DNA from: a virus | Lineage: Duplodnaviria > Caudoviricetes | Reading direction: 5' to 3' (one strand) | IMG/VR virus record: IMGVR_UViG_3300019487_000034 | Coordinates: 1 to 61,068 of that record | DNA length: 61,068 bases | In this document: in pieces, positions 1 through 61,068 of the stretch | How the letters are laid out: every line of letters begins with the position of its first letter | Numbering within the stretch: position 1 is the first letter of the stretch | The notes under the pieces: generated by a model | Told to the model about the DNA's origin: nothing | The model's input: only the letters and a program-made list of their open reading frames with translations | The model's database searches: none | Translations under genes and position numbers: made by a program

Positions 1-90
1 CCCCGTTGGGGTTACCCCGAACGCCCCCCCCCCCCCCAAGCGGGGTCTGCGGGACCCCCCGGGGCCCCCGCCCCCCCCCCCCCCCGCCCG
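1..90. other. Low-complexity poly(C)-rich contig end
   Basis: Long C runs mixed with irregular GC-only sequence; mirrors the C-rich right end. Confidence 0.8.
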
Positions 91-191
91 GTTTATTCTG
101 CAGCTCGTTGGTCCAGCTATACTGGACCCACAGGCGATAACGTAAACCGTACTAAACTTGTTATAACTGGTGTCACCTATTCTGTGTACAA

Positions 192-209
192 GTGTCTCCT
201 CGAAGACAC
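192..209 (+). promoter_or_regulatory. Putative upstream activator site for a sigma54 enhancer-binding protein
   Basis: Inverted repeat GTGTCT-N6-AGACAC containing TGT-N10-ACA (193-208), about 70 bp upstream of the -24 box. Confidence 0.45.
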
Positions 210-275
210 AACTCGAGGGATCATAATCATTAATAGCTAGCTGCATTGCGTAGAAATCATTCGTGATTTCGAAGC

Positions 276-291
276 TGGCACGGTGTCTGCA
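276..291 (+). promoter_or_regulatory. Sigma54 (-24/-12) promoter
   Basis: TGGCACG-GTGT-CTGCA matches consensus TGGCACG-N4-TTGCW with exact GG/GC spacing, at the start of the early arm. Confidence 0.7.
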
Positions 292-301
292 ATAGCTATT
301 C

Positions 302-552
302 TCGTTCGGCGAGGCAAACTGAGTGCAAGCCTCACGGGATACCAGGATACGGCCAGGGGCGCCGCAGGGACTAAGCCCAAGCCTATAAGATCCGGAGACC
401 GACGACCGAACTAACTGAAGCTGGGATCATGGGAATGTTCGCTTGCAGTCAAAGGATGCTGGTGCTCGGGACTACCGCCTGACAAGCGGCCGACGCTGGT
501 GCTGACTAGTTGCAATACAATGTAACGGCGATCTTCCGACCCATGATCCAAA
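302..552 (+). ncRNA. Structured non-coding RNA / long leader of unknown family
   Basis: No credible ORF; long-range helices GTTCGG 304-309/CCGAAC 405-410 and GGATCATGGG 424-433/CCCATGATCC 540-549, with nested hairpins. Confidence 0.6.
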
Positions 553-601
553 CCCGTATCTGCAATTGCAGACTGACGAGCCGGAGTAACGGCGAAACGG
601 G
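553..601 (+). ncRNA. Hammerhead ribozyme, type III (predicted cleavage after A558)
   Basis: CCCG-UA / stem I UCUGC-AAUU-GCAGA / CUGACGA / stem II GCCG-GAGUAA-CGGC / GAAA / CGGG: full catalytic core and all three stems intact. Confidence 0.93.
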
Positions 602-608
602 GAATAAC

Positions 609-794
609 ATGAATATTGAGCAATACGTGGATGCGATTGGGCAATTCGTTGACCTATCGACACTGGACATGTCATCCGATGAGATCGACAATTATGCGGT
701 CGAAATGCTGGAAGCCGGATATTCCGCCGAGGAAGCGGCTGCAGGCTTATGCCTGGAAAATATTCCGGATCAATTTCATTTGCAGGGGGAATAA
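609..794 (+). CDS. Small acidic hypothetical protein (first early gene)
   Basis: ATG at 609 after GGGGA RBS; very D/E-rich. Confidence 0.7.
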   Translation: MNIEQYVDAIGQFVDLSTLDMSSDEIDNYAVEMLEAGYSAEEAAAGLCLENIPDQFHLQGE

Positions 795-795
795 T

Positions 796-951
796 ATGAT
801 TAAGTTTGGAAGTCACGTCTGGTTTATTCGGGAGCGGGCCGGACAGTACTGGTTGGTAGACGATAGTAATCCCGAACTGGCCCTGAAGTTGCAAGGTGTT
901 CACTGCCAGGCCGAGGCGGAACGCATGGCCTGGGTGTTGATAAACGGATAA
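796..951 (+). CDS. Hypothetical protein
   Basis: ATG after AGGGGGA RBS, abuts previous stop. Confidence 0.6.
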   Translation: MIKFGSHVWFIRERAGQYWLVDDSNPELALKLQGVHCQAEAERMAWVLING

Positions 952-968
952 TAAACTAGGAGCATCAA

Positions 969-1211
969 ATGCGAGTCTTCAATCAAGCGGGCGATACGGT
1001 TAACATTACGGTCGGCGGGCGTTACTCCGATGATATACAGATCAATTCGGCCGAATTCGAGATGCATCCGGAGCTGGATGTCCCGGACACCGATATTGAG
1101 TGGATTCTCGAGAATCACGCTGATGAGATCTACCAGGAATGGCTCGAGAATCGGATTGATGAGGCAGAATTGGCTTGCGAGTTGCGTCGAGATGCGGAGA
1201 TGGGACTATGA
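969..1211 (+). CDS. Acidic hypothetical protein
   Basis: AGGAG RBS, 80 aa. Confidence 0.7.
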   Translation: MRVFNQAGDTVNITVGGRYSDDIQINSAEFEMHPELDVPDTDIEWILENHADEIYQEWLENRIDEAELACELRRDAEMGL

Positions 1212-1492
1212 GTCACAAGTTAACACCGACCCGACCGGGTCCAGAATTCAGTCACAAGCTGACACTTCACCAGGTCATGAAATTGGGTCTCGAGGTGTGG
1301 GTAATACGATATAACAATCGGGACGTATACCAGTATCTATCGGAGCGTATTGCCCGGACTAGGTTCGAACGTCTCCGCATGGAATTGGAAAGGGGACTGC
1401 ATGCGTCCACGGACCCAGAACGGAGCCAACATGCGGCCCATCCGGTGGGCCCCGAAGGGAGACATCATGTATCTGCTCGCCGATCAGTCTAG
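1208..1492 (+). CDS. Hypothetical protein
   Basis: ATGA overlap with previous stop; short SHKLT duplication. Confidence 0.5.
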   Translation: MSHKLTPTRPGPEFSHKLTLHQVMKLGLEVWVIRYNNRDVYQYLSERIARTRFERLRMELERGLHASTDPERSQHAAHPVGPEGRHHVSARRSV

Positions 1493-2243
1493 TAATGCGA
1501 AACTGTCGAAGAATCTCGGTATCACGGCCAAATGGCAGACCTCGATTCTATACCTGTCCCCCGCCGATAGCAGCGATCTGACAGATAGCTCCGGCGGTCC
1601 GGTTAACCTCTGTCCGGCGGCGAGTCCCGGTTGCCGTGCGGCATGCCTCAATACGGCCGGACGTGGTGCCATGAGTAGCGTGCAGCTCGGGCGTCTCCGC
1701 AAGACGAAACTTCTGGTCCAAGACCCGATCGAATTTAACCGGCAACTATCTGCGGACCTCGAGACGCTTGTCAATCGTCAGCGTAGAACGGGAGTGAGGC
1801 AGGCAGTCCGTCTAAACGGAACGTCCGATATCGCATGGGAATTCCATTCCATTGTCCGGAACGGAACGGAGTTCGACGGAGTCCCCCAGGCATTCCCCGA
1901 ACTTCTCTTCTACGATTACACCAAGTTGCCGAATAGGATAATCGACTTCGCTACTCCCGAGGATTCCTGGTTTCCGAGTAACTACCATCTAACATTCAGT
2001 CGGTCCGAAGTTAACGACGTGATAGTCCGGCGATTGCTCAAGTATAGCACAGTCACGGTCGCAGTTGTATTCTCCGGAACACAGTTGCCTACTGAATGGA
2101 ACGGCCGGCCGGTGATCGACGGGACACAGCATGATATGAGATTCCTGGACCCGGCCGGTGTAATTGTGGGCCTGTTGGCTAAGGGCAAGGCGAAACGTGA
2201 TGACTCAGGATTTACTATCCAATTAACGGAGGGAGCGGCATGA
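1467..2243 (+). CDS. GP88-like phage protein (Cys-motif, radical-SAM-like)
   Basis: LCPAASPGCRAACLNTAGRG, VRLNGTSDI, FYDYTK, YHLTFSRSE, HDMRFLD motifs; RBS GGGAG before ATG 1467. Confidence 0.75.
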   Translation: MYLLADQSSNAKLSKNLGITAKWQTSILYLSPADSSDLTDSSGGPVNLCPAASPGCRAACLNTAGRGAMSSVQLGRLRKTKLLVQDPIEFNRQLSADLETLVNRQRRTGVRQAVRLNGTSDIAWEFHSIVRNGTEFDGVPQAFPELLFYDYTKLPNRIIDFATPEDSWFPSNYHLTFSRSEVNDVIVRRLLKYSTVTVAVVFSGTQLPTEWNGRPVIDGTQHDMRFLDPAGVIVGLLAKGKAKRDDSGFTIQLTEGAA

Positions 2244-2482
2244 GTAAGTGCCAGCGTTGCGGAGGCAAGGCCAAGTTATATTCAATCTCGGCGAAATGTT
2301 CGGACCTATACTCACATGAGCATATCGGAGGCAAGAGCTACGATGGCTACGTGCCCGATTGGATCGGCGAATACGGTGATTATGTGCGATTCACTATCTG
2401 TCGACACTGTGGCCAGGTCCAGGGGGAATGGCCTGAACTGGACAGTTCAATTAACAAGTTCAAATCAGGAAAGGCGAGTTAA
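2240..2482 (+). CDS. Zn-finger-like hypothetical protein
   Basis: CQRC...CRHC; ATGA overlap. Confidence 0.7.
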   Translation: MSKCQRCGGKAKLYSISAKCSDLYSHEHIGGKSYDGYVPDWIGEYGDYVRFTICRHCGQVQGEWPELDSSINKFKSGKAS

Positions 2483-2484
2483 CC

Positions 2485-2577
2485 ATGGACGAATACCTAC
2501 TATTCTATATTCCAGTCCTAATAGGACTAGGACTGGCAATCCTAGTACTACTAACCGTAGACGATGGGAGGGATTGA
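2485..2577 (+). CDS. Small membrane peptide (30 aa)
   Basis: MDEYLLFYIPVLIGLGLAILVLLTVDDGRD fills the gap exactly; below ORF-track cutoff. Confidence 0.55.
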   Translation: MDEYLLFYIPVLIGLGLAILVLLTVDDGRD

Positions 2578-2578
2578 T

Positions 2579-2851
2579 ATGTCTGTGATAATGTCAGTCA
2601 CGTTCGGGCATCGCCCGGTGACACAGATCGAGTTGGTATTAACACGGGACACTGAGCGGTATACCGTATCCGTGAATGATTCGGAGGGACTCCTGCACCT
2701 GACGGAATTCCCGTTCGATGACACGATTGAGTTACTGGATGCAAACGAACAGGCACTGGAATGGTTCGACACTGTGCATGAGGCTATCACACAGTACGTA
2801 GATCAATCTGGTAGCCAAGCGATTCGCAATCTGGTGAATACACTGCAGTAA
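2579..2851 (+). CDS. Hypothetical protein
   Basis: GGGAGGG RBS. Confidence 0.7.
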   Translation: MSVIMSVTFGHRPVTQIELVLTRDTERYTVSVNDSEGLLHLTEFPFDDTIELLDANEQALEWFDTVHEAITQYVDQSGSQAIRNLVNTLQ

Positions 2852-2863
2852 CGGAGGTACGCC

Positions 2864-3535
2864 ATGGCCATCTATAACGACGGACTTCCCAAGGAACATT
2901 GCCGCAAGATCATACTGGATCGAATGAGTGAACGTCTGTCATCCGCATTTACACTGCCCTCCGAGTCACTGACGTTCGAGCAGAGACTGACTGAGTTGAA
3001 CCCGAATATCCGGCTAGTTGGTGCTGAATGGGACACAGGCGTGTGGTCTAGGGCACAGGAGAAGGCCAACCGCTGGCGACTGCCAATCTCCATAATGCGG
3101 GGTGAGGATCTCAACGTACTCAAGTCAGCGGAACAGCAGCAATTCCAATTGATGTGGCTAGACTGGTGTGGATCATTGACTTCTAATCGTATTGATTACA
3201 TGAGACGCATAGCGAGGGGATTACATTCCTGTCAATACCTAGCCGTTACTATTCTGGCAGCTCGAGAGCCTGCGGGTAATCTTCCCGAAGCGTATGCCAG
3301 GGACCGAGCTTCCTGGATCACGACGCAGCTGCGGAGTGCAGCGACCCGTAGGGATCGGCACTGTCACCCATTGCACATAGTGCGTTATCATTCTCATGTC
3401 GGAGACTATGTCTCATCACCAATGTTATTCATGCTATTCCAATTTCATGAATCGAAGTATCCGGTCCTCGATATTTCTGATTTTACTCGGGTTGAACATT
3501 TAGTGTCCACAGGTAGACGTTTGGTTGCAGCGTAA
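2864..3535 (+). CDS. Putative SAM-dependent methyltransferase-fold protein
   Basis: LVGAEWD and FQLMWLDWCG resemble class I MTase strands; GGAGG RBS. Confidence 0.45.
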   Translation: MAIYNDGLPKEHCRKIILDRMSERLSSAFTLPSESLTFEQRLTELNPNIRLVGAEWDTGVWSRAQEKANRWRLPISIMRGEDLNVLKSAEQQQFQLMWLDWCGSLTSNRIDYMRRIARGLHSCQYLAVTILAAREPAGNLPEAYARDRASWITTQLRSAATRRDRHCHPLHIVRYHSHVGDYVSSPMLFMLFQFHESKYPVLDISDFTRVEHLVSTGRRLVAA

Positions 3536-3585
3536 TATTCGAACAGTACCGACGTGTATGCAAATAACAAGAAGGAGAACACATC

Positions 3586-4323
3586 GTGAGTCAGAATCTC
3601 AGCTCAGTCAGCATCAGTGAGTACGCCGATCGTGCATTGGCATCAGTCTCGGGACGCTATCGCCCAGTGGACACCGAGTCACTAGTGCAGAAGATCATTA
3701 AGGACATTGGCCTGGGTGCGACGGTCGAAGCTGTATCCGGGAGGGGCTCGAAGAGTACCAAGCATGCAGTAGTACTGACACTGCCGAACCCCGTGAGTCT
3801 TGCCGGAACCCAGTGCTACCCCCGGATCTATGTCCGGAACTCATACGATGGGGAGTCGGCACTGACCGTACGTGTCGGCTTCTATAGGCTCATCTGCACC
3901 AATGGCATGATGATTGGCACGGATCACTTCAATGGCCGCATCGTACACTTGCAGTCTGGTGTCCAGCAGTTGGCACAGTTGCGGAGTAGCATTGTCGCTG
4001 CTGTCCAGTGGTGCACGGTCGAGCTGCCCAAGCTTGCGGACAGATTGAATTCGGTGCTCCTCACACCGGTACAAATTAGCACCGTACTGGCGAGGATCGG
4101 AGCATCGAAGCGGTTAGCCGAGCGGGTCAGCACTCGAGTGCAGTTCCCGTGGGTTGCGGTTCGCACCGAGGATCGCCAGGTCGATGGTCAATTGACAGCG
4201 TGGAACGTGTGGAATATTATCAATGAGCAGCAGCGAATCCTCTCACGGTCGCAGCTCCGTCAATTGGAAGTCAATGCCCGGCTACTGGATGCAGTCGAGG
4301 CAGTAGTTCAGCAAGCCGCATAG
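3586..4323 (+). CDS. DUF932/DUF945-family protein
   Basis: NSYDGESAL...GFYRLICTNGM signature. Confidence 0.8.
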   Translation: MSQNLSSVSISEYADRALASVSGRYRPVDTESLVQKIIKDIGLGATVEAVSGRGSKSTKHAVVLTLPNPVSLAGTQCYPRIYVRNSYDGESALTVRVGFYRLICTNGMMIGTDHFNGRIVHLQSGVQQLAQLRSSIVAAVQWCTVELPKLADRLNSVLLTPVQISTVLARIGASKRLAERVSTRVQFPWVAVRTEDRQVDGQLTAWNVWNIINEQQRILSRSQLRQLEVNARLLDAVEAVVQQAA

Positions 4324-4404
4324 CCCTCTGCAATTGCTGCTGCAATCATGCCTCGGTCAACCGATCCCATGGAAGGGATCCCGCCTACAACGAGGAAGAG
4401 TAAC

Positions 4405-4578
4405 ATGACCAGTCCCGAACTGGCACTCGCCATAATTGCCGCACGCAAGTGGCGGAATGGACACCTAATCGAGCTGGACCTCAAGGGTCTGCGGGATCAA
4501 CCGATAGATCGAGAGTTGGATTCGGATTGTACACCCGAACAATGGGAGAGACTGAATAATGATTCAACAATTCGTTGA
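4405..4578 (+). CDS. Hypothetical protein
   Basis: GAGGA RBS before ATG 4405. Confidence 0.5.
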   Translation: MTSPELALAIIAARKWRNGHLIELDLKGLRDQPIDRELDSDCTPEQWERLNNDSTIR

Positions 4579-4960
4579 TCGCTTCATGGGCTCACGGGAT
4601 ATGCTGCGATCTAAGTGGGCATTGAAACATGTAGATTCCTACAAAGAGCTAGTAACAGACGTCGTCCAGATCCTCCATGATCCGGAGGAGTATGAGTCCA
4701 TTGATCCGAATAGAGTGCATCTCATCGACGATGGTGACTATCAGGGAACGCTGTTGTTTGTGATTGCTGCTGGAGGATACCAGCCGAGTACCTACTGGTA
4801 CGTGAAGGTCAGTTACGGTAGTTGCAGCGGATGTGATACACTGGAAGGAATCCGTGGGTACTATGAGCTTCCTCCCACCGAGGAACAATTAGATCAATAC
4901 CTAACCCTAGCCCTGCATGTGGTGCAGGGATTGAAAGGAATGAACAATGAGGAAGAATAA
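4559..4960 (+). CDS. Hypothetical phage protein
   Basis: GDYQG and YGSCSGCDTLE motifs. Confidence 0.7.
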   Translation: MIQQFVDRFMGSRDMLRSKWALKHVDSYKELVTDVVQILHDPEEYESIDPNRVHLIDDGDYQGTLLFVIAAGGYQPSTYWYVKVSYGSCSGCDTLEGIRGYYELPPTEEQLDQYLTLALHVVQGLKGMNNEEE

Positions 4961-5168
4961 TATTCGAGTGACACGTCCGGATCAGGCACGTGCCGAAGCG
5001 GCAGCCAAACGCCGGGCCAAGCGAAAGCAAGTGCGCACGGCCCTCCTCGCCCCGTATCGCAAGCTCCTGGTAGCTCGAGATGAGCAGATCTCCAAGCTCA
5101 TCACTGAGGTACAGGAGTTGTCGTCGGAGAATCAGAAGCTTCGACTTCCGGTGACGGAGGGCAAGTGA
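4947..5168 (+). CDS. Basic coiled-coil hypothetical protein
   Basis: Tight operon packing. Confidence 0.6.
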   Translation: MRKNNIRVTRPDQARAEAAAKRRAKRKQVRTALLAPYRKLLVARDEQISKLITEVQELSSENQKLRLPVTEGK

Positions 5169-5476
5169 GTCACACACCACCACCTCCGAAACCCCCGGTT
5201 TACAAGACGTATGCCGAACGTGCCGCAGCGGAGAAGAAGATACGGGATGAGAGTAACCGGAAGACTCATCAGGAGTACCGGCTACCTCCAGTACCGGCGC
5301 TCGGTAAGACACGACGACATGACCCGAAGGATCCGGTCCCGAGTGCGGGTGGTATTCCAACGAGGGACATGGAGCCAATCAAGCTTCCACTGCGGAAGCG
5401 TGAGGATCGGGGTAAGTTTGCGGATATCATATCCATTAATCGGAAGGAGGGAAGAGGAGATGGACAACAGGATTGA
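5165..5476 (+). CDS. Hypothetical protein
   Basis: GGAGG RBS, GTGA overlap. Confidence 0.6.
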   Translation: MSHTPPPPKPPVYKTYAERAAAEKKIRDESNRKTHQEYRLPPVPALGKTRRHDPKDPVPSAGGIPTRDMEPIKLPLRKREDRGKFADIISINRKEGRGDGQQD

Positions 5477-5726
5477 GACTGAATCACTTGCCGATTGGAT
5501 TGGCGGTCGCAGTAACCGCCCCCGCTGGTCTGAGCCCGAGGGTATGACAGCCTGGGAATTACTGAAATGGTACCGTCAATGCTCGCAACGCCAGAGGATT
5601 CGACATGCTACCAGGATCCGTGAATTGTCCGAGCAGGTAATTCGTGAGTATCACGAAGTGGGATACGAGAAGGGTCGGATGGATCCCCTGTCCCTTATAC
5701 TCGGTCCAATGAGGGAGGCCAAATGA
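5460..5726 (+). CDS. Hypothetical protein
   Basis: GGAGG/GAGGAG RBS. Confidence 0.55.
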   Translation: MDNRIETESLADWIGGRSNRPRWSEPEGMTAWELLKWYRQCSQRQRIRHATRIRELSEQVIREYHEVGYEKGRMDPLSLILGPMREAK

Positions 5727-6313
5727 TACCGTATTCGCCACATGTTTTGCTAGCGCTGGGATTATTGAATCCCCAATACGGGTTACTGGCCGAACCCACC
5801 CCACCCCTCTCAACTCACAAGTGTGGCATCTCACTGGCAGAGCATGCTGGACTATCTCCGCACGATGCGGAGATAGTCGTCGGGCAGATCGAGCTGCATT
5901 CGGTCTCCCAGGACGAGGAGTTTCTCCGAGTACTGTACGCATTAGCCTATGTTGAGAGTAGATTTCGGACGGACCGGAGGTCAAGTGCTGGGGCGGTGGG
6001 CATTCTCCAGGTAACCCTCGATGCAGCGAAGCACATCCATGTACTGCGCCGTACCGTTGGGTTGCGGGAGGTAGCTCCCACACTCAAGAGACTATCACAA
6101 GTTCCGATCAATGTCAACTACGGTTCTGCCTACCTGTGGCTGGCTCTGGAAGAGGCCGATGGGGACTACCTGGGTGCCCTCACTATGTACAATGGCGGCT
6201 ATCGGCAGTTGACTAATCTGCGACGAGGTGCTATTGTCACTCATGAGACTGCGCAGTACGTACTGCGAGTCATGACTCTGGCATTTACATGTGGTGTGAA
6301 GAGTCCAGGGTAA
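5723..6313 (+). CDS. Lytic transglycosylase (SLT domain)
   Basis: VESRF catalytic Glu, SSAGAVGILQV, YGSAYL, MYNGG, ETAQYV motifs. Confidence 0.85.
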   Translation: MIPYSPHVLLALGLLNPQYGLLAEPTPPLSTHKCGISLAEHAGLSPHDAEIVVGQIELHSVSQDEEFLRVLYALAYVESRFRTDRRSSAGAVGILQVTLDAAKHIHVLRRTVGLREVAPTLKRLSQVPINVNYGSAYLWLALEEADGDYLGALTMYNGGYRQLTNLRRGAIVTHETAQYVLRVMTLAFTCGVKSPG

Positions 6314-6335
6314 TAGCAATTCCACGGAGGTTTGG

Positions 6336-7112
6336 ATGATTAAGTTTCTTCTGGCATTGTTCACTTCGTTCTATGCGTGTACGGGACTGTCCGATTCCCT
6401 ATTCATCGGGGGAGGTACACCTGCGAAGGTGGTAAATGTTGATAATCATTTCCTCTATCTCGATGGGGTGATCACGGGTCAGACTATTGCTCCACTCCAA
6501 GAGGCACTCGAGAAGATCATCACCGCCGGTGGCAGTAAACGAGCAGTAACAATCCTCATCAATTCCCCGGGCGGTGGTGTCGTTGCCGGTATGTCCTTCA
6601 TTAATCGAATGCAGACTCTCCGTGCCCTGGGTACCGAGATTAACTGCTATGTGCTAGATGTTGCTGCCTCGATGGCATTTCAGATTCTCACTCAGTGTAC
6701 TACCCGGTATACTATGCCGACCTCCTTCCTCCTCTGGCACGGGGTTCGAATGGGAACGTATCAGCCCATTACGGCCGAACTGGCCCGGCAGATGGCAGCT
6801 GATCTCGAGCGCATGGACTTCATGGTAATGCGGCAGTTGGCTAGTACCCTCAGTATGAAGGATGATGATATCCGTAGTCACTTCCGCAATGAGACCCTGT
6901 GGTCCGGTGCCGGTCTACATTTCATAGACCCCTACTTCATTAGTATCGAGGATGCCTATCCAGAGTTGATGTCGAAGTTGGATACTGCTGTTCGCACCGA
7001 GGAGCCTATGTTCTTCCTACAATTGGATGGCATGATCTACATCTGGGAGAGTTGGGCTCGGAAGGCTGGTTTGATTCCAGCTATTCAACCTGGCATGGAG
7101 GGGGCACAGTGA
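6336..7112 (+). CDS. ClpP/S49-like serine protease with N-terminal signal-like peptide
   Basis: ILINSPGG, AASMA (Ser), LLWH (His), ETLW motifs. Confidence 0.8.
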   Translation: MIKFLLALFTSFYACTGLSDSLFIGGGTPAKVVNVDNHFLYLDGVITGQTIAPLQEALEKIITAGGSKRAVTILINSPGGGVVAGMSFINRMQTLRALGTEINCYVLDVAASMAFQILTQCTTRYTMPTSFLLWHGVRMGTYQPITAELARQMAADLERMDFMVMRQLASTLSMKDDDIRSHFRNETLWSGAGLHFIDPYFISIEDAYPELMSKLDTAVRTEEPMFFLQLDGMIYIWESWARKAGLIPAIQPGMEGAQ

Positions 7113-7459
7113 GTCGTAGAATCTCGTTTAAACTCTATGATAAGGATGCTGCCGGTAATCCACTGAACGAGTTGGGCCTGAGTCTCGCATTCCAGCGGCA
7201 CTACGCTGTCAATCTCGGGGTGCCAGATGATCTGAATATACTGGTGAAGAAAGTCTGGTTGAAGTTTCTGATGGATTCAGTGGACCCTGTTGCCTCTGAC
7301 AAAGCAAACTTGAGTAAGGCTGGAGTAACTGATGCGGTTCCACAAGGAGACACTGCGGGACATGGCGAGCCGGCTCTCGGGGAACCCGAGGGGAATACTG
7401 GTGATGCAGTGGCCCAGCCGCAAGTTGTGGATGATCAGGACACCACTACCACTGGGTGA
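7109..7459 (+). CDS. Hypothetical protein
   Basis: GTGA overlap, GGAGGGG RBS. Confidence 0.55.
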   Translation: MSRRISFKLYDKDAAGNPLNELGLSLAFQRHYAVNLGVPDDLNILVKKVWLKFLMDSVDPVASDKANLSKAGVTDAVPQGDTAGHGEPALGEPEGNTGDAVAQPQVVDDQDTTTTG

Positions 7460-7553
7460 CCTGTGCCCTGCGGTATTAATGAGGGACCGTGACCAGGCTC
7501 CGGTGTGGGTGAGCGTGGATGACCCAGTGTGGATCTACCGTGGAGTACTCTGA
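7332..7553 (+). CDS. Hypothetical protein overlapping the previous gene's 3' end
   Basis: GGAG RBS; stop overlaps next ATG (TGATG). Confidence 0.45.
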   Translation: MRFHKETLRDMASRLSGNPRGILVMQWPSRKLWMIRTPLPLGDLCPAVLMRDRDQAPVWVSVDDPVWIYRGVL

Positions 7554-8635
7554 TGTCAATTATCCGGTTGGATATTGGGCAGCGATTACGAGAGGGCCGG
7601 CAGCTTGCTCGCCGTGAGTACCAGGCCCAGGATGTCCTGAAGCTCGGTGTACTCCGTGCGGGTAACTCCGGCATTGTCTCGGTTGACGGTGAGGTAGCTG
7701 CCTCGTGTCACAGGGTGGCACATCTCCGGCAACTCGGCATCGAGGTGGATCCACCGGATGACTCCTCCCTGTTGATGTTCCAGTTGGGCACCGCCAATGA
7801 ACAAGTGGTATACGAGGACCTGGTGCACACGGCCGGATCCGACGAGGTTATCCTCAGAGAGGAAGAGATCCCGATCGAGTGGTTCACGTCGAATGGTACG
7901 AAGGTTACGGGCCGCCCGGACATGGTGATCTGTCACCAGACCCAGGGTCCGGACTGCGAGCCCAAACCGGTGTTATGCGTGGAGATTAAGAGTATCGCCT
8001 CAGTGTGGACCAGTAGTGCCGTGATGTTCGATGGTGAGCCCAAGCTGGGGCACCTGGCCCAGGTGGGCCACTATATGTGGAAGCTGGGAACCCCGGGACG
8101 TATAGTCTACAAGCAGTATGCTATCCAGGAGATCCCGAACTGGACCGAGGTGGTCAACGGTGAGAAGCGCAAGGGCTGGGGTCAGAAGCTATTCCCCCGT
8201 GCTGGTGCTCCGGGTTCCGAGCTAATAGACTACGAGAAGGGTCGCATCCGTCCGTTCGAAGTAGTGTATGAGTTGGAGTTTACGGACGACGGCGTGCTCA
8301 AGTATAAGCGGGAGGGAGCCGAGACCGATTGGACCTTGACGATCGTGAGTACTACTGACATTGCTCGATTCTATGAGCTGGTCTCCAACATGGCTAGCAC
8401 AGGTAACCTGGGTCCCCGGCCGCTCACACTCTCCCCGGATGGGTCGACCAAGCGGTTCACGAACTGCGCATACTGTCCGTTGAATGCGGTGTGTGATTCG
8501 GTTGAGGGTGCCGATCCTGGTACGCAGTACCTGCAGTGGCTGGATGCAGTGCGAGAACATGTGGCGAACCGAGGGGCTAGTAGTGAAGTGAGCCCAACAC
8601 CGAAACGGGTTGACAAGCGTAGCAAACTGAAGTAA
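7553..8635 (+). CDS. Cas4/AddB-like PD-(D/E)xK exonuclease
   Basis: N-terminal SCHR Cys, GRPD, VEIKS, QVGHY, C-terminal CAYCPLNAVC (four-Cys Fe-S staple pattern). Confidence 0.75.
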   Translation: MSIIRLDIGQRLREGRQLARREYQAQDVLKLGVLRAGNSGIVSVDGEVAASCHRVAHLRQLGIEVDPPDDSSLLMFQLGTANEQVVYEDLVHTAGSDEVILREEEIPIEWFTSNGTKVTGRPDMVICHQTQGPDCEPKPVLCVEIKSIASVWTSSAVMFDGEPKLGHLAQVGHYMWKLGTPGRIVYKQYAIQEIPNWTEVVNGEKRKGWGQKLFPRAGAPGSELIDYEKGRIRPFEVVYELEFTDDGVLKYKREGAETDWTLTIVSTTDIARFYELVSNMASTGNLGPRPLTLSPDGSTKRFTNCAYCPLNAVCDSVEGADPGTQYLQWLDAVREHVANRGASSEVSPTPKRVDKRSKLK

Positions 8636-17067: not shown

Positions 17068-17101
17068 GTCGTCGTCGAGACGACTAGCGAACGGAGTGAG
17101 C
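17068..17101 (+). repeat. Two-hairpin element copy B
   Basis: GTCGTC-GTCGA-GACGAC ta GC-GAACGGAGTGA-GC. Confidence 0.75.
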
Positions 17102-17102
17102 A

Positions 17103-17663
17103 ATGGGTCACAGAAACAGAGAGATTGAACTGAAGATGCTCGTGCCGGGAACCTACACTCACATCTGCGAGGAACTGGACAGGATACTCTCAGACGAGAA
17201 ACCGCAGATACGGACTGGTAGTTCCCTTGACACCTACTGGACCATTCATGATGGGCGTGCAGAAGCACAGTTCCTCCGGGTCCGTGAGCGTGACGGGATC
17301 CGGCAGATCACCGCCAAGGGCAAGGACCGGGGTACCAACGTCAACCGCATTGAGGTTGACATTGATTCCACCAGTGAGACCCATCGGATTCACCGCCTAC
17401 TCCGGTGTGTCCTGGGGAAGCCCGCCGGTGTAGTGCAGAAGGTGTACAAGGTGTGGGAGCTAGAGTCCGAATATGACACCGTATGCGCCTACGAGGTATT
17501 GGAACCAGAGAATAAGCTGGGCATGGTTATCGAAGTTGAGGCACGTACCGAGGAGCGCATGCGGGAACTTGAAATGCTAGTACGGGGGGCCATCCCCGGA
17601 GTGCAGACTGCACCGGGTAGTCTATATGAGTTGTTGATCGCCAAGAGTGTACCAATCAAATGA
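17103..17663 (+). CDS. CYTH-domain protein (triphosphate tunnel metalloenzyme / class IV cyclase-like)
   Basis: EIELK, DTYW, LRVR, ITAKG, RIE, IEVE motifs. Confidence 0.8.
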   Translation: MGHRNREIELKMLVPGTYTHICEELDRILSDEKPQIRTGSSLDTYWTIHDGRAEAQFLRVRERDGIRQITAKGKDRGTNVNRIEVDIDSTSETHRIHRLLRCVLGKPAGVVQKVYKVWELESEYDTVCAYEVLEPENKLGMVIEVEARTEERMRELEMLVRGAIPGVQTAPGSLYELLIAKSVPIK

Positions 17664-20181: not shown

Positions 20182-20688
20182 ATGCCTTCTTGGAATATCA
20201 TTACTGCTGGTACCGGGTGGGGTACTGGTGACGCTGATTGCCCTGTTATGTCAGAAACTCCACTATTGGTGGACCACCCGATTGTGAATACTGGTACCCA
20301 GGTGAATGCCACTACGGCAACTATTCAGCAGGCACTGACCGCAGGTCCAGCACTTAAGTTTGATACTGCTAAGGTGAGGCTCGAGCTTCTCTCTGTACCC
20401 GCTATGGAGGCTATTGCCGAAGTGATGACCTTCGGTGCCCGCAAGTATGCAGCTCACAACTGGCGCAAGGGATTCGAGTGGTCTCGCCTATTCGGTGCAC
20501 TACTCCGGCACACGTTCGCCGCAATGAGGGGCGAGGACCGAGACCCGGAGTCCGGTCTCCTCCATCTGGCTCATGCCGGTTGCTGTGTCATGTTCCTATT
20601 GGAGCATGTCCTCTGCAAGCTGGGTACGGATGACCGGTATAAGTCGATTGTCGTCGAGACAATCCCGAACGAAGTGAGGGGGAAGTGA
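20182..20688 (+). CDS. DUF5664 dATP/dGTP diphosphohydrolase-like protein
   Basis: KFDTAK, FGARKYAAHNWRKG, ALLRH, DPESGLLHLAHA. Confidence 0.85.
   Translation: MPSWNIITAGTGWGTGDADCPVMSETPLLVDHPIVNTGTQVNATTATIQQALTAGPALKFDTAKVRLELLSVPAMEAIAEVMTFGARKYAAHNWRKGFEWSRLFGALLRHTFAAMRGEDRDPESGLLHLAHAGCCVMFLLEHVLCKLGTDDRYKSIVVETIPNEVRGK
20646..20680 (+). repeat. Two-hairpin element copy C
   Basis: GATTGTC-GTCGA-GACAATC then CC-GAACGAAGTGA-GG, inside the 3' end of a CDS. Confidence 0.75.
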
Positions 20689-21278: not shown

Positions 21279-21316
21279 GCTCGCCGTCGAGGCGAGTCCC
21301 AGCGAACGGAGTGAGC
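21279..21316 (+). repeat. Two-hairpin element copy D
   Basis: GCTCGCC-GTCGA-GGCGAGT ccca GC-GAACGGAGTGA-GC. Confidence 0.75.
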
Positions 21317-21319
21317 GGT

Positions 21320-21595
21320 ATGAATGATGGATACCTTGCTAGACTGAAGCTTGTGGAACAACAGATCACTGTGATGCGCTCCGATATGAACAAGGCGCTC
21401 AATGAGGTCATGGACACAATAACCAAGATGATGACCGCCCATCGCATGTTCCAGATCTACATCGATGAGAACCTGAGGGAACTTCGGGATAAGGCAGGAC
21501 TCTCAGGTTCGCTTCTCACAGATGGTCTCGCCTCGACCGAGGATACGTCATCGATGGCGCCCTCGACGGGCGATGTCGGAGGCAAGGAGTTATGA
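21320..21595 (+). CDS. Coiled-coil hypothetical protein
   Basis: ATG after GGAGTGAG. Confidence 0.6.
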   Translation: MNDGYLARLKLVEQQITVMRSDMNKALNEVMDTITKMMTAHRMFQIYIDENLRELRDKAGLSGSLLTDGLASTEDTSSMAPSTGDVGGKEL

Positions 21596-22128
21596 TCCCC
21601 GAATTTGGTCGGGTCATGATTGGCTGGTATATCCTGTTCCTCCTCCTACTTGTCACCACTGGCTGTGGCTATGATGAGTGGAGAGAGACCGACTGTTACG
21701 ATGGCTGTGAACCCCCGGAGGAATATCCAGATGACCAAGATAGCGAAACCCGCAGTGTTACTGTGGTCGGACCTGCAGGGCCTACGGGTCCGACTGGACC
21801 GAGTGGTAAAAGGGGGCGGACCGGGGATCCAGGAGTTGCTGGCAAACCTGGACGAGATGGAACTGATGGTGCTCCGGGGACAGCTGGTGCAGATGGTCAG
21901 CCAGGTCCAGTGGGTACTCCAGGCGCACAGGGCGAGGAAGGGCCCGTAGGGCCGACTGGTGAGGAAGGGCCGGTGGGGGATACGGGGCCACAGGGCGAGG
22001 AGGGTGGTAGCTGCACTACGTATTACATCAATGGAAATCAGGACTGCGGTGTGGTGATCGAGTGCGAGGATGGAACACTGACAGAGATTCCCGGTAAGAA
22101 GTATAATAGGCCAATCTGTGCACACTGA
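21592..22128 (+). CDS. Collagen-like (Gly-X-Y) putative lipoprotein
   Basis: Hydrophobic N-terminus with TTGC; more than 25 contiguous GXY triplets; Cys-rich C-terminus. Confidence 0.8.
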   Translation: MIPEFGRVMIGWYILFLLLLVTTGCGYDEWRETDCYDGCEPPEEYPDDQDSETRSVTVVGPAGPTGPTGPSGKRGRTGDPGVAGKPGRDGTDGAPGTAGADGQPGPVGTPGAQGEEGPVGPTGEEGPVGDTGPQGEEGGSCTTYYINGNQDCGVVIECEDGTLTEIPGKKYNRPICAH

Positions 22129-22364: not shown

Positions 22365-23051
22365 ATGAACTGGAATGAACTTCTAGGCGAGGATTGGTGG
22401 TGGCATGCTGCTATTCTGGCAAATAAACTTGCTGGACAACCAAGTAAACCACGAACGGATGTATACCCCGAACGACTCAACGTGTTCGCCGCATTCGATG
22501 AGGTTGAACCCAATGATGTCCGAGTAATTATTCTCGGCCAAGATCCCTATCACAGCGTGGGAAAAGCCCGGGGCGTAGCATTCGGATATCACCCGGGCTA
22601 CACGGGATCTGTTAACAGTTCATTGGCTAACATCATTCTAGAAGCGGGAGGGGACCCTACTCACTTCGACAAGACACTCCGTAACTGGACCCAACAGGGA
22701 GTCCTGCTACTCAACACCCGGTTAACTGTTCCCCATGAGCAGCCCATGGGCCACGCAGGACTGGGCTGGGAAGAGATGGTATCAGAGGCTCTCGAGGTAG
22801 TCGTCAAGCGGGGCCAACCCCCAATACTGGCCTGGGGTGCCGAAGCCCGTAAGATGGCAGCACGAACGTCCGCATGGACAGTTATTGACACGAGCCACCC
22901 TTGCAGGTATAGTGCTTCCAGGGGGAACAAGCCGTTCCTCGGTAGCAATTGCTTCGAACGAGTGAATGAGGCCCTAGTGGCACAGGGTGACGAACCGATT
23001 AACTGGGCCTGTTCTGGACCCTCGGGGGTCGGAGGTATTAATAACACATGA
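22365..23051 (+). CDS. ung: Uracil-DNA glycosylase, family 1
   Basis: ILGQDPYH, GVAF, SLANI, QGVLLLNTRLTV, GWE, AWG, SHP. Confidence 0.9.
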   Translation: MNWNELLGEDWWWHAAILANKLAGQPSKPRTDVYPERLNVFAAFDEVEPNDVRVIILGQDPYHSVGKARGVAFGYHPGYTGSVNSSLANIILEAGGDPTHFDKTLRNWTQQGVLLLNTRLTVPHEQPMGHAGLGWEEMVSEALEVVVKRGQPPILAWGAEARKMAARTSAWTVIDTSHPCRYSASRGNKPFLGSNCFERVNEALVAQGDEPINWACSGPSGVGGINNT

Positions 23052-57149: not shown

Positions 57150-57178
57150 ACTGTAACATGGGGTCAACTACCTGTCAA
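57150..57178 (-). promoter_or_regulatory. Sigma70-type promoter embedded in an inverted repeat
   Basis: TTGACA-N17-TACAGT with extended TG; hairpin 57158-57184. Confidence 0.6.
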
Positions 57179-60945: not shown

Positions 60946-61001
60946 TGCCCAGTACGACCCATCGCACCCAATACGGGTACCAGCGTACCCACAGGGTCCC
61001 A
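60946..61001 (+). repeat. Helically phased CCCA repeats
   Basis: CCCA at 60948, 60958, 60967, 60988, 60998 and ACCA at 60979. Confidence 0.55.
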
Positions 61002-61003
61002 GT

Positions 61004-61068
61004 CCCCCCCCCCCCCCCCCCCCCCTTTCTTTCTCTCTTTTGTCCCCCCCCACTCCCACCACCCGCGA
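61004..61068. other. Poly(C) tract and low-complexity contig end
   Basis: More than 20 consecutive C followed by pyrimidine-rich sequence. Confidence 0.8.

Follow-up and report, generated by a model that had tools for sequence, protein, structure and literature searches.

The window analysed here is the whole 61,068-nt stretch of IMG/VR record IMGVR_UViG_3300019487_000034, a tailed double-stranded DNA (dsDNA) virus of the Caudoviricetes. Judged by its sequence and predicted fold, the element at positions 553 to 601 is a genuine type III hammerhead ribozyme directly ahead of ORF1, the first open reading frame (ORF) of the plus strand. The preferred reading, to which a probability of roughly 0.6 is given, is that this hammerhead would act as a natural leader-trimming insulator for ORF1 of the plus-strand replication operon. 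This reading is carried by the motif, its position, its compensatory conservation in a syntenic contig and its overlap with the Shine-Dalgarno sequence of ORF1.

Sequence and fold of the hammerhead

The features on which the argument depends are the following.

553-601, plus strand: type III hammerhead, from Rfam, pairs read by script and the minimum-energy fold
599-602 and 609-611, plus strand: Shine-Dalgarno GGGG and ATG of ORF1, read from sequence
609-794, plus strand: ORF1, 61 aa, no family, opening the operon that leads to GP88, DUF932, a ClpP-like protein, DNA polymerase and helicase

With E-value reporting, the whole Rfam model RF00008 (type III) was matched at 551-603 with 39.2 bits and an E-value of 1.1e-6, and at E<=1 the genome holds no second match to that model. 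Stem III has 5 bp, pairing 553-557 (C553-U557) with 597-601 (A597-G601), and an open end; stem I has 5 bp (559-563/568-572) and an AAUU loop; stem II has 4 bp (580-583/590-593) and a GAGUAA loop. All pairs are perfect, and the arrangement of two loop-capped stems (I and II) with an open stem III is that of a type III hammerhead. The conserved catalytic core is complete, with CUGACGA at 573-579, GAAA at 594-597 and the U557-A597 pair. The cleavage triplet G556 U557 A558 is of the NUH form, with A558 as H17, and the predicted cut lies between A558 and U559. All three stems are also included in the minimum-energy fold of 420-606. An earlier examination, referred to here as the sequence-only reading, had described a perfect hammerhead just before the first ATG, cut after A558, and had proposed a covariance search of Rfam as a check. 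The search agrees with this description, with a score under the gathering cut-off of the family, and A558 is the correct position for the predicted site given the core and the GUA triplet.

The ribozyme and the translation start of ORF1 share nucleotides. G599-G601 belong both to the 3' strand of stem III and to the Shine-Dalgarno GGGG, while the ATG at 609 lies 7 nt past the end of stem III (G601) and 6 nt past the last G of GGGG. Since G599-G601 are paired in stem III, the ribosome site of ORF1 would be half buried until the 5' fragment departs.

Conservation in relatives

The hammerhead motif scan covered 166 sequences (1,058,464 bases), and type III copies were found in only the window, which is also present in the set as L001, and in L120. 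The latter is a metagenome contig of 1,783 nt that is syntenic with the window: its GP88 is 55% identical to that of the window by BLASTP (59% in the alignment), and it encodes a homologue of the window ORF at 1208-1492 (52.5% over 40 aa, E 4e-7). Its hammerhead, of type III and at 633-687, scores 25.6 bits in Rfam and is preceded by a 524-nt leader free of ORFs. It is followed by GGGG at 682-685 and, 5 nt after this GGGG, by a GTG at 691 that opens a short ORF unrelated to ORF1 of the window. As the two ribozymes are followed by unrelated first ORFs, it is the position of the ribozyme that has been kept and not the gene.

Pairs were read by script, as a MAFFT alignment misplaced the 5' halves of four hammerheads. 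Between the window and L120 the core and the A at H17 are identical, three pairs of stem I and one of stem II are altered on both sides, and none is broken. These compensatory changes, a thin sample as they come from a single relative, are the main argument that a working ribozyme has been retained in front of the operon.

Several results weigh against this interpretation. The score of 39.2 bits is below the RF00008 gathering score of 48.5, and at gathering thresholds Rfam has no match anywhere in the window. Stem III is short, with 5 bp in the window and 4 bp in L120. Among the sequences compared, the ribozyme occurs in no relative but L120: of 50 IMG/VR records with GP88 only 1 gives any match, a weak one of 21.4 bits, no hammerhead is found at E<=1 in L005 and L086 (GP88 54%) or at E<=0.1 in a further twelve GP88 loci from metagenomes, and none is present in the cultured, distant GP88 phages HMO-2011 and HTVC120P. 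The closed RNA domain that precedes the ribozyme, described below, is based on folding statistics of two sequences that cannot be aligned. Close relatives are scarce across GenBank phages, IMG/VR and the metagenome scans, and the metagenome scan with P0019 missed P0019's own contigs. GP88 homologues closer than that of L120, with 66-73% identity, do exist in Logan, ENA and JGI data, as do the contigs of P0013 and P0019 (61.7 kb and 62.2 kb).

Pattern-scan matches elsewhere were rejected as relatives of this ribozyme, being unrelated type I ribozymes, look-alikes in coding sequence and two type III copies in candidate-phyla metagenome-assembled genomes. The last two are compact type III hammerheads on the minus strand, L192:1814-1870 and L181:1881-1935, in genomes of Patescibacteria and Saccharibacteria, and in L192 stem II and its loop are exactly those of the L120 ribozyme. 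Among the type I matches, a pair at L002:4991-5041 and 5238-5294, about 250 nt apart, flanks a short stretch. The same pair is found in L003 and L004; all three are phage contigs of 90-139 kb, and the first copy lies just past a terminator-like hairpin behind an ORF. Another type I hammerhead, L068:4846-4897, is located about 165 nt downstream of a GP88 match (4001-4681) in an unrelated IMG/VR contig.

Proposed mechanism and comparison with known systems

Under the proposed mechanism, in any transcript entering from upstream the closed domain would fold, then the ribozyme, which would cut itself at A558|U559. The released leader would end in a 2',3'-cyclic phosphate, and the downstream mRNA would start with a 5'-OH at U559 and have stems I and II as its folded 5' end. 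As a stem III of 5 bp should be unable to hold the leader fragment, G599-G601 would be freed for the ribosome, exposing the Shine-Dalgarno sequence 7 nt ahead of the ATG. The domain at 424-550 would most likely shield the ribozyme fold from the rest of the leader, or cap the 3' end of the released leader. Given the RNases that depend on the 5' end, a 5'-OH followed by two hairpins should make the mRNA decay more slowly. Cleavage in vivo and an effect on translation or stability are what we infer from this arrangement.

The window copy shares with the RF00008 type III family its core CUGANGA...GAAA, loop-capped stems I and II, open stem III, GUA triplet and near-consensus stem lengths. The family is found in viroids, satellites and retrozymes, whereas the window copy is located in the leader of a dsDNA phage, scores 39.2 against 48.5 bits and has a 5-bp stem III that doubles as ribosome binding site. 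A type III hammerhead is also the basis of RiboJ insulators, in which it stands between promoter and ribosome site, the 5' leader is removed and expression is independent of the leader. RiboJ was engineered from a satellite RNA ribozyme with a hairpin added; the arrangement in the window, in contrast, is natural and has the ribosome site within stem III. If the predicted cleavage is true, the window would hold a natural bacterial-virus counterpart to engineered ribozyme insulators, in which one short RNA strips a long regulatory leader, fixes a 5'-OH end and exposes the ribosome site of the first gene. It would also provide a bacteriophage case beside the single mapped archaeal-virus example.

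That example shows that leader-trimming hammerheads before viral genes are already known. As described by Perreault et al. (2011, PMC3088659), haloviruses HF1 and HF2 have an early polycistronic transcript with a hammerhead 13 nt ahead of the first ORF's start codon, and the mapped 5' end of the transcript is at most 3 nt from the cleavage site. The window resembles HF1/HF2 in having the hammerhead a few nucleotides ahead of the first ORF of a polycistronic unit in a tailed dsDNA virus. The HF1/HF2 hammerhead belongs to archaeal viruses, is structurally variant and needs high Mg2+, whereas the window has a canonical core in a phage and a 500-nt leader with a sigma54-type box before the hammerhead. 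The same paper reports gene-flanking prophage hammerheads that are active both in vitro and in E. coli, and a general use of phage hammerheads in cutting polycistronic RNA (PMC3088659). These phage and prophage ribozymes are likewise self-cleaving, lie between genes and process long transcripts; most of them are of type I or II, and a gene is often flanked by two or three of them, whereas the window has one type III hammerhead alone, where an operon begins. In RNA viruses, ribozymes of the 5' untranslated region directly upstream of the viral ORF have been linked to translation initiation (PMC13725137). These belong to eukaryotic RNA viruses and cap-independent translation, and the mechanism is not transferable to bacterial ribosomes.

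Upstream regulatory region and the sigma54-type box

Upstream of the leader, the following features were found.

110-128, no strand assigned: perfect palindrome GGTCCAG-N5-CTGGACC, from the palindrome scan
192-209, no strand assigned: perfect palindrome GTGTCT-N6-AGACAC, 67 nt upstream of the box
253-270, no strand assigned: perfect 7+4+7 palindrome GAAATCA-TTCG-TGATTTC, 5 nt upstream of the box
276-291, plus strand: sigma54-type -24/-12 box TGGCACGGTGTCTGCA, GG at 277-278, GC at 289-290, one mismatch

The consensus used was the sigma54 consensus TGGCACG-N4-TTGCW, from which the box departs by a T to C change at -15 with the GG-N10-GC geometry intact. Both the -24/-12 box and the activator-like palindrome at 192-209 had been pointed out by the sequence-only reading, and both are present, the palindrome as one of three perfect short ones. 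In the 200-nt stretch that holds them, the palindrome scan yielded 5 nested matches against 0.47 +/- 0.86 in shuffles, a number reached by 3 of 500 shuffles and by 2 of 297 window tiles of equal size. The stretch 110-291, with its three palindromes and the box, is probably regulatory DNA.

What the box does is less certain. Allowing at most one mismatch, the window has 2 boxes against 0.42 +/- 0.68 expected, and 7 of 100 shuffles have at least 2; allowing at most two, it has 32 against 25.0 +/- 4.5. Taken alone, the window box is within chance. In 160 GP88 loci (974,517 bases), on the other hand, perfect boxes are enriched about 40-fold (6 against 0.15 expected), and 24 boxes with one mismatch are found against 5.7 expected. 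In L120 a perfect box lies within the leader, at 460-475, and points away from the hammerhead, with a 7+4+7 palindrome 15 nt away on the box's own upstream side. L086, a related contig of 55 kb, has three perfect boxes within 104 nt (4220-4323), in a 415-nt non-coding region before the early ORFs and GP88, and a second cluster of five one-mismatch boxes within 111 nt (7447-7557) near the contig end. These boxes lie on both strands, 5-45 nt apart, a packing too dense for independent promoters. Nothing obvious explains such dense two-strand arrays; a sigma54 sink, an array of operators or an origin are candidate roles for the L086 clusters. Other matches are of a different kind: L158 has three hairpins (3090-3135, 6205-6240 and 7308-7345), likewise present in L157, with TGGCACG/CGTGCCA arms and T-runs at their flanks, and the four box matches that they give, one of them perfect, look like intrinsic terminators. 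The one-mismatch box of L095 is intragenic, and HMO-2011 has a single one-mismatch box elsewhere in its genome.

The box is not conserved facing the same genes, being on the opposite strand in L120 and on both strands in L086. A transcription start near 302 would follow from canonical spacing only and is no finding, since the box orientation is not kept in these two relatives. Upstream of 609 there are no sigma70-type sites of at least 9/12 facing the plus-strand operon, and no terminator-like sites were found in 1-3000. The sigma54-type box is the sole consensus-like promoter facing this operon. Neither PF00158 nor PF04552, the sigma54 activator and DNA-binding domains, is encoded by the phage.

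Phage promoters that depend on a host enhancer-binding ATPase are rare. A precedent is the virulent Pseudomonas phage YuA, for which a partial dependence of transcription on host sigma54, from a sigma54-like promoter, has been reported (Ceyssens 2008, cited in PMC10914365). YuA is similar to the window in genome size. We saw no sequence relation between the two, and the GP88 matches listed include no Pseudomonas phage. The orientation of the predicted window box is not conserved in the relatives.

Considering these results together, the box is probably a real site of the sigma54 holoenzyme, with about even odds that it is the promoter of the hammerhead transcript. It is quite conceivable, at odds of roughly one in three, that the box does not drive this transcript, being a chance match, part of an operator or a site with another binding role (e.g., a divergent or antisense promoter, or a sigma54 sink), and that an unrecognised phage-specific or weak promoter lies upstream. 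The weak statistics of the window box, its different orientation in L120, the density of the L086 clusters and the terminator-like matches of L157 and L158 are all in line with this, and a plus-strand ORF of L120 that stops just ahead of the leader suggests read-through could supply the transcript. The 40-fold enrichment in GP88 loci argues against it, as do the location of the L120 and L086 boxes in the non-coding region that matches the window leader, the lack of another promoter-like site facing the operon and the precedent of sigma54-dependent promoters in YuA (PMC10914365).

The upstream ORF of L120 also fits a different role for the hammerhead, in which it mainly forms a 3' end and sets an upstream transcription unit apart from the replication operon, as proposed for gene-flanking prophage hammerheads, with nothing specific to do for ORF1. 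Prophage hammerheads that cut polycistronic RNA to gene-length pieces (PMC3088659) and the type I pairs around a small ORF in L002-L004 are consistent with such a role. It is nevertheless improbable, given that the window has no plus-strand coding sequence upstream, with the record and an independent Logan contig both ending in a C-rich tract, and that the ribozyme adjoins the ribosome site in both phages despite different ORFs.

Leader RNA

Insulation by the hammerhead would act on a non-coding leader of roughly 500 nt, in which two segments are distinguished.

302-423, plus strand: leader segment with no structure, family or conservation detected
424-550, plus strand: closed RNA domain, helix GGAUCAUGGG (424-433) / CCCAUGAUCC (540-549), ending 3 nt ahead of the ribozyme

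As a whole, 302-558 is as stable as its shuffles, with a z-score of -0.16 and 88 of 200 shuffles equally stable; its complement has z 0.47, and 302-552 and 296-610 have z -0.65 and -1.51. The perfect 10-bp helix 424-433/540-549, which closes a 127-nt domain, is matched by 1 of 1000 shuffles. For 420-552, z is -2.31 and 4 of 200 shuffles fold as well; for 420-606, whose minimum-energy fold has the domain joined by 3 nt to the hammerhead, z is -2.58 and 3 of 200 are as stable. L120 has the same layout at 440-690, where 10 nt link a closed domain of 185 nt to the hammerhead, with z -2.65 and no equally stable fold in 200 shuffles. For its positions 476-635, z is -2.12. Its longest helix adjoining the ribozyme, 8 bp, is less striking, being reached in 49 of 1000 shuffles. 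Since only 424-550 stands above shuffles, the structured RNA is reduced to a possible domain directly ahead of the ribozyme.

Sequence likeness among the leaders of the window, L120 and L086 is at chance level: the local alignment score is 20 against 19.9 +/- 2.6 in shuffles, the score in reverse orientation 25 against 23.3 +/- 3.1, and the global score 148 against 143 +/- 8.8. As the leaders are unalignable, covariation is not countable. A MAFFT block seemingly common to the window and L120 leaders was rejected as chance; its seven IMG/VR matches have no hammerhead core or leader likeness and resemble high-GC coding sequence. In an Rfam search of 1-1200 at E<=10, the only match besides the hammerhead was a weak one at 776-833 (E 4.7). 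Short ORFs of 43-143 aa overlap the leader on both strands, and tblastx of the window leader against those of L120 and L086 revealed no conserved protein (best E 0.038).

These results bear on the part of the sequence-only reading concerned with the leader, which it had described as about 250 nt of ORF-free paired sequence released as a discrete RNA effector of about 255 nt. Pairing holds for the closed domain at 424-550 and not for 302-558 as a whole. The region is ORF-free to the extent that no conserved protein was detected, and the overlapping short ORFs depart from that description. The effector itself fares poorly, as 302-420 has no fold signal and the leader has no Rfam family and no similarity to L120 or L086.

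Order of expression

Sigma70-type sites scoring 10-11/12 with an extended -10 TG are located on the minus strand at 57178, 59228, 60133 and 60782. These account for four of the seven TG-bearing sigma70-type sites in the genome, and they are the strongest. All four point into small minus-strand ORFs, one of which is HNH-like. By consensus matches alone, the right-end minus-strand genes look like the immediate-early class. The plus-strand replication operon would then need something else, which fits a gated promoter and not one that is used first. The hammerhead module had been taken to be the first expressed; with the strongest sigma70-type sites on the minus strand at 57.2-60.8 kb, this is doubtful.

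The scenario in which a host enhancer-binding ATPase opens 276-291 first in infection, transcription starts near 302 and a 257-nt effector RNA (302-558) is released has several elements in its favour: the canonical GG-N10-GC spacing of a box with one mismatch, the recurrence of sigma54-type boxes in relatives, palindromes upstream where activator sites could sit, no other consensus-like promoter facing the operon, no terminator between 302 and the ribozyme, and 424-550 as a closed 3' domain for the released RNA. We consider it unlikely, at about one chance in eight. The putative effector folds like shuffled sequence and has no Rfam family at E<=10, the leader is unlike that of L120 in either orientation and unlike that of L086, the perfect box of L120 points away from its hammerhead, the right end is the likelier immediate-early region, and no activator or sigma54 was found in the phage.

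A broader conjecture, just as unlikely, is a trait of the clade: in the window, L120 and L086, one to eight sigma54 sites near palindromes and in either orientation ahead of the replication operon would tie replication to a host ATPase or soak up sigma54, and in the window and L120 the hammerhead would in addition yield a cyclic-phosphate RNA, of 257 nt, and a 5'-OH mRNA. RNA ends with a cyclic phosphate are the kind of signal sensed by the sigma54 activator RtcR, and sensing of the released end by RtcR could form a feedback loop.

It is very improbable that the hammerhead motif has lost its activity or resembles a ribozyme by chance, as its score under the Rfam cut-off and the sub-threshold RF00008 matches in 3 of 14 control genomes might suggest, given the intact core, three perfect stems and four compensatory pairs relative to L120 at the same genomic position.

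Genome organization and additional observations

The IMG/VR record (61,068 bases) is linear and 100% complete according to CheckV. Plus-strand genes span 609 to about 24 kb and include, among small ORFs without a family, GP88 (PF17338), DUF932, a ClpP-like protein, an SLT transglycosylase, HNH, a family A DNA polymerase, a helicase, a dATP/dGTP diphosphohydrolase domain and UDG. The minus strand, from about 60.8 kb down to 24 kb, encodes terminase, portal, a head decoration protein and large structural ORFs. The GGGGAAUAA-N-AUG motif of ORF1 is repeated ahead of ORF2 at 796.

A blastn search of GenBank phages with window positions 1-8000 returned no DNA-level match, and matches at protein level are distant (22-26% for the DNA polymerase, about 40% for GP88). 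As single-protein queries against IMG/VR, ORF1, GP88 and the DNA polymerase retrieved no relative; in a GP88 profile scan, the best among the matches listed has 55%. For the ORF at 2864-3535, the only match among 359 candidates was itself.

The record ends, 1-90 and 60998-61068, are long C-rich homopolymer tracts, which may be true termini or a limit of the assembly. Among sequencing runs, one DNA run, possibly the source, is listed as holding the sequence, and no RNA run is listed. The independent Logan contig of this run begins near window position 69, inside the left C-rich tract, and covers 100-1500 with zero differences; it does not bridge the genome ends and adds nothing upstream of the window start.

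Some further features deserve mention. The ORF at 20182-20688 (plus strand) matches the N-terminal domain of dATP/dGTP diphosphohydrolase (PF18909, E 1.7e-32). Phages in which a DNA base is replaced are known to have this domain. Not far from this ORF, at 22365-23051, is one of the UDG family. The ORF at 21592-22128 (plus strand), at the end of the plus block, has collagen triple-helix repeats (PF01391), and a 48-nt imperfect direct repeat is found at 21894/21957. Finally, a 32-nt motif with AGCGAACGGAGTGAGC at its end is present in two copies, at 17070-17101, where it stops just short of the ORF that starts at 17103, and at 21285-21316; it may serve the plus-strand operon as a regulatory or ribosome-site element specific to this phage.

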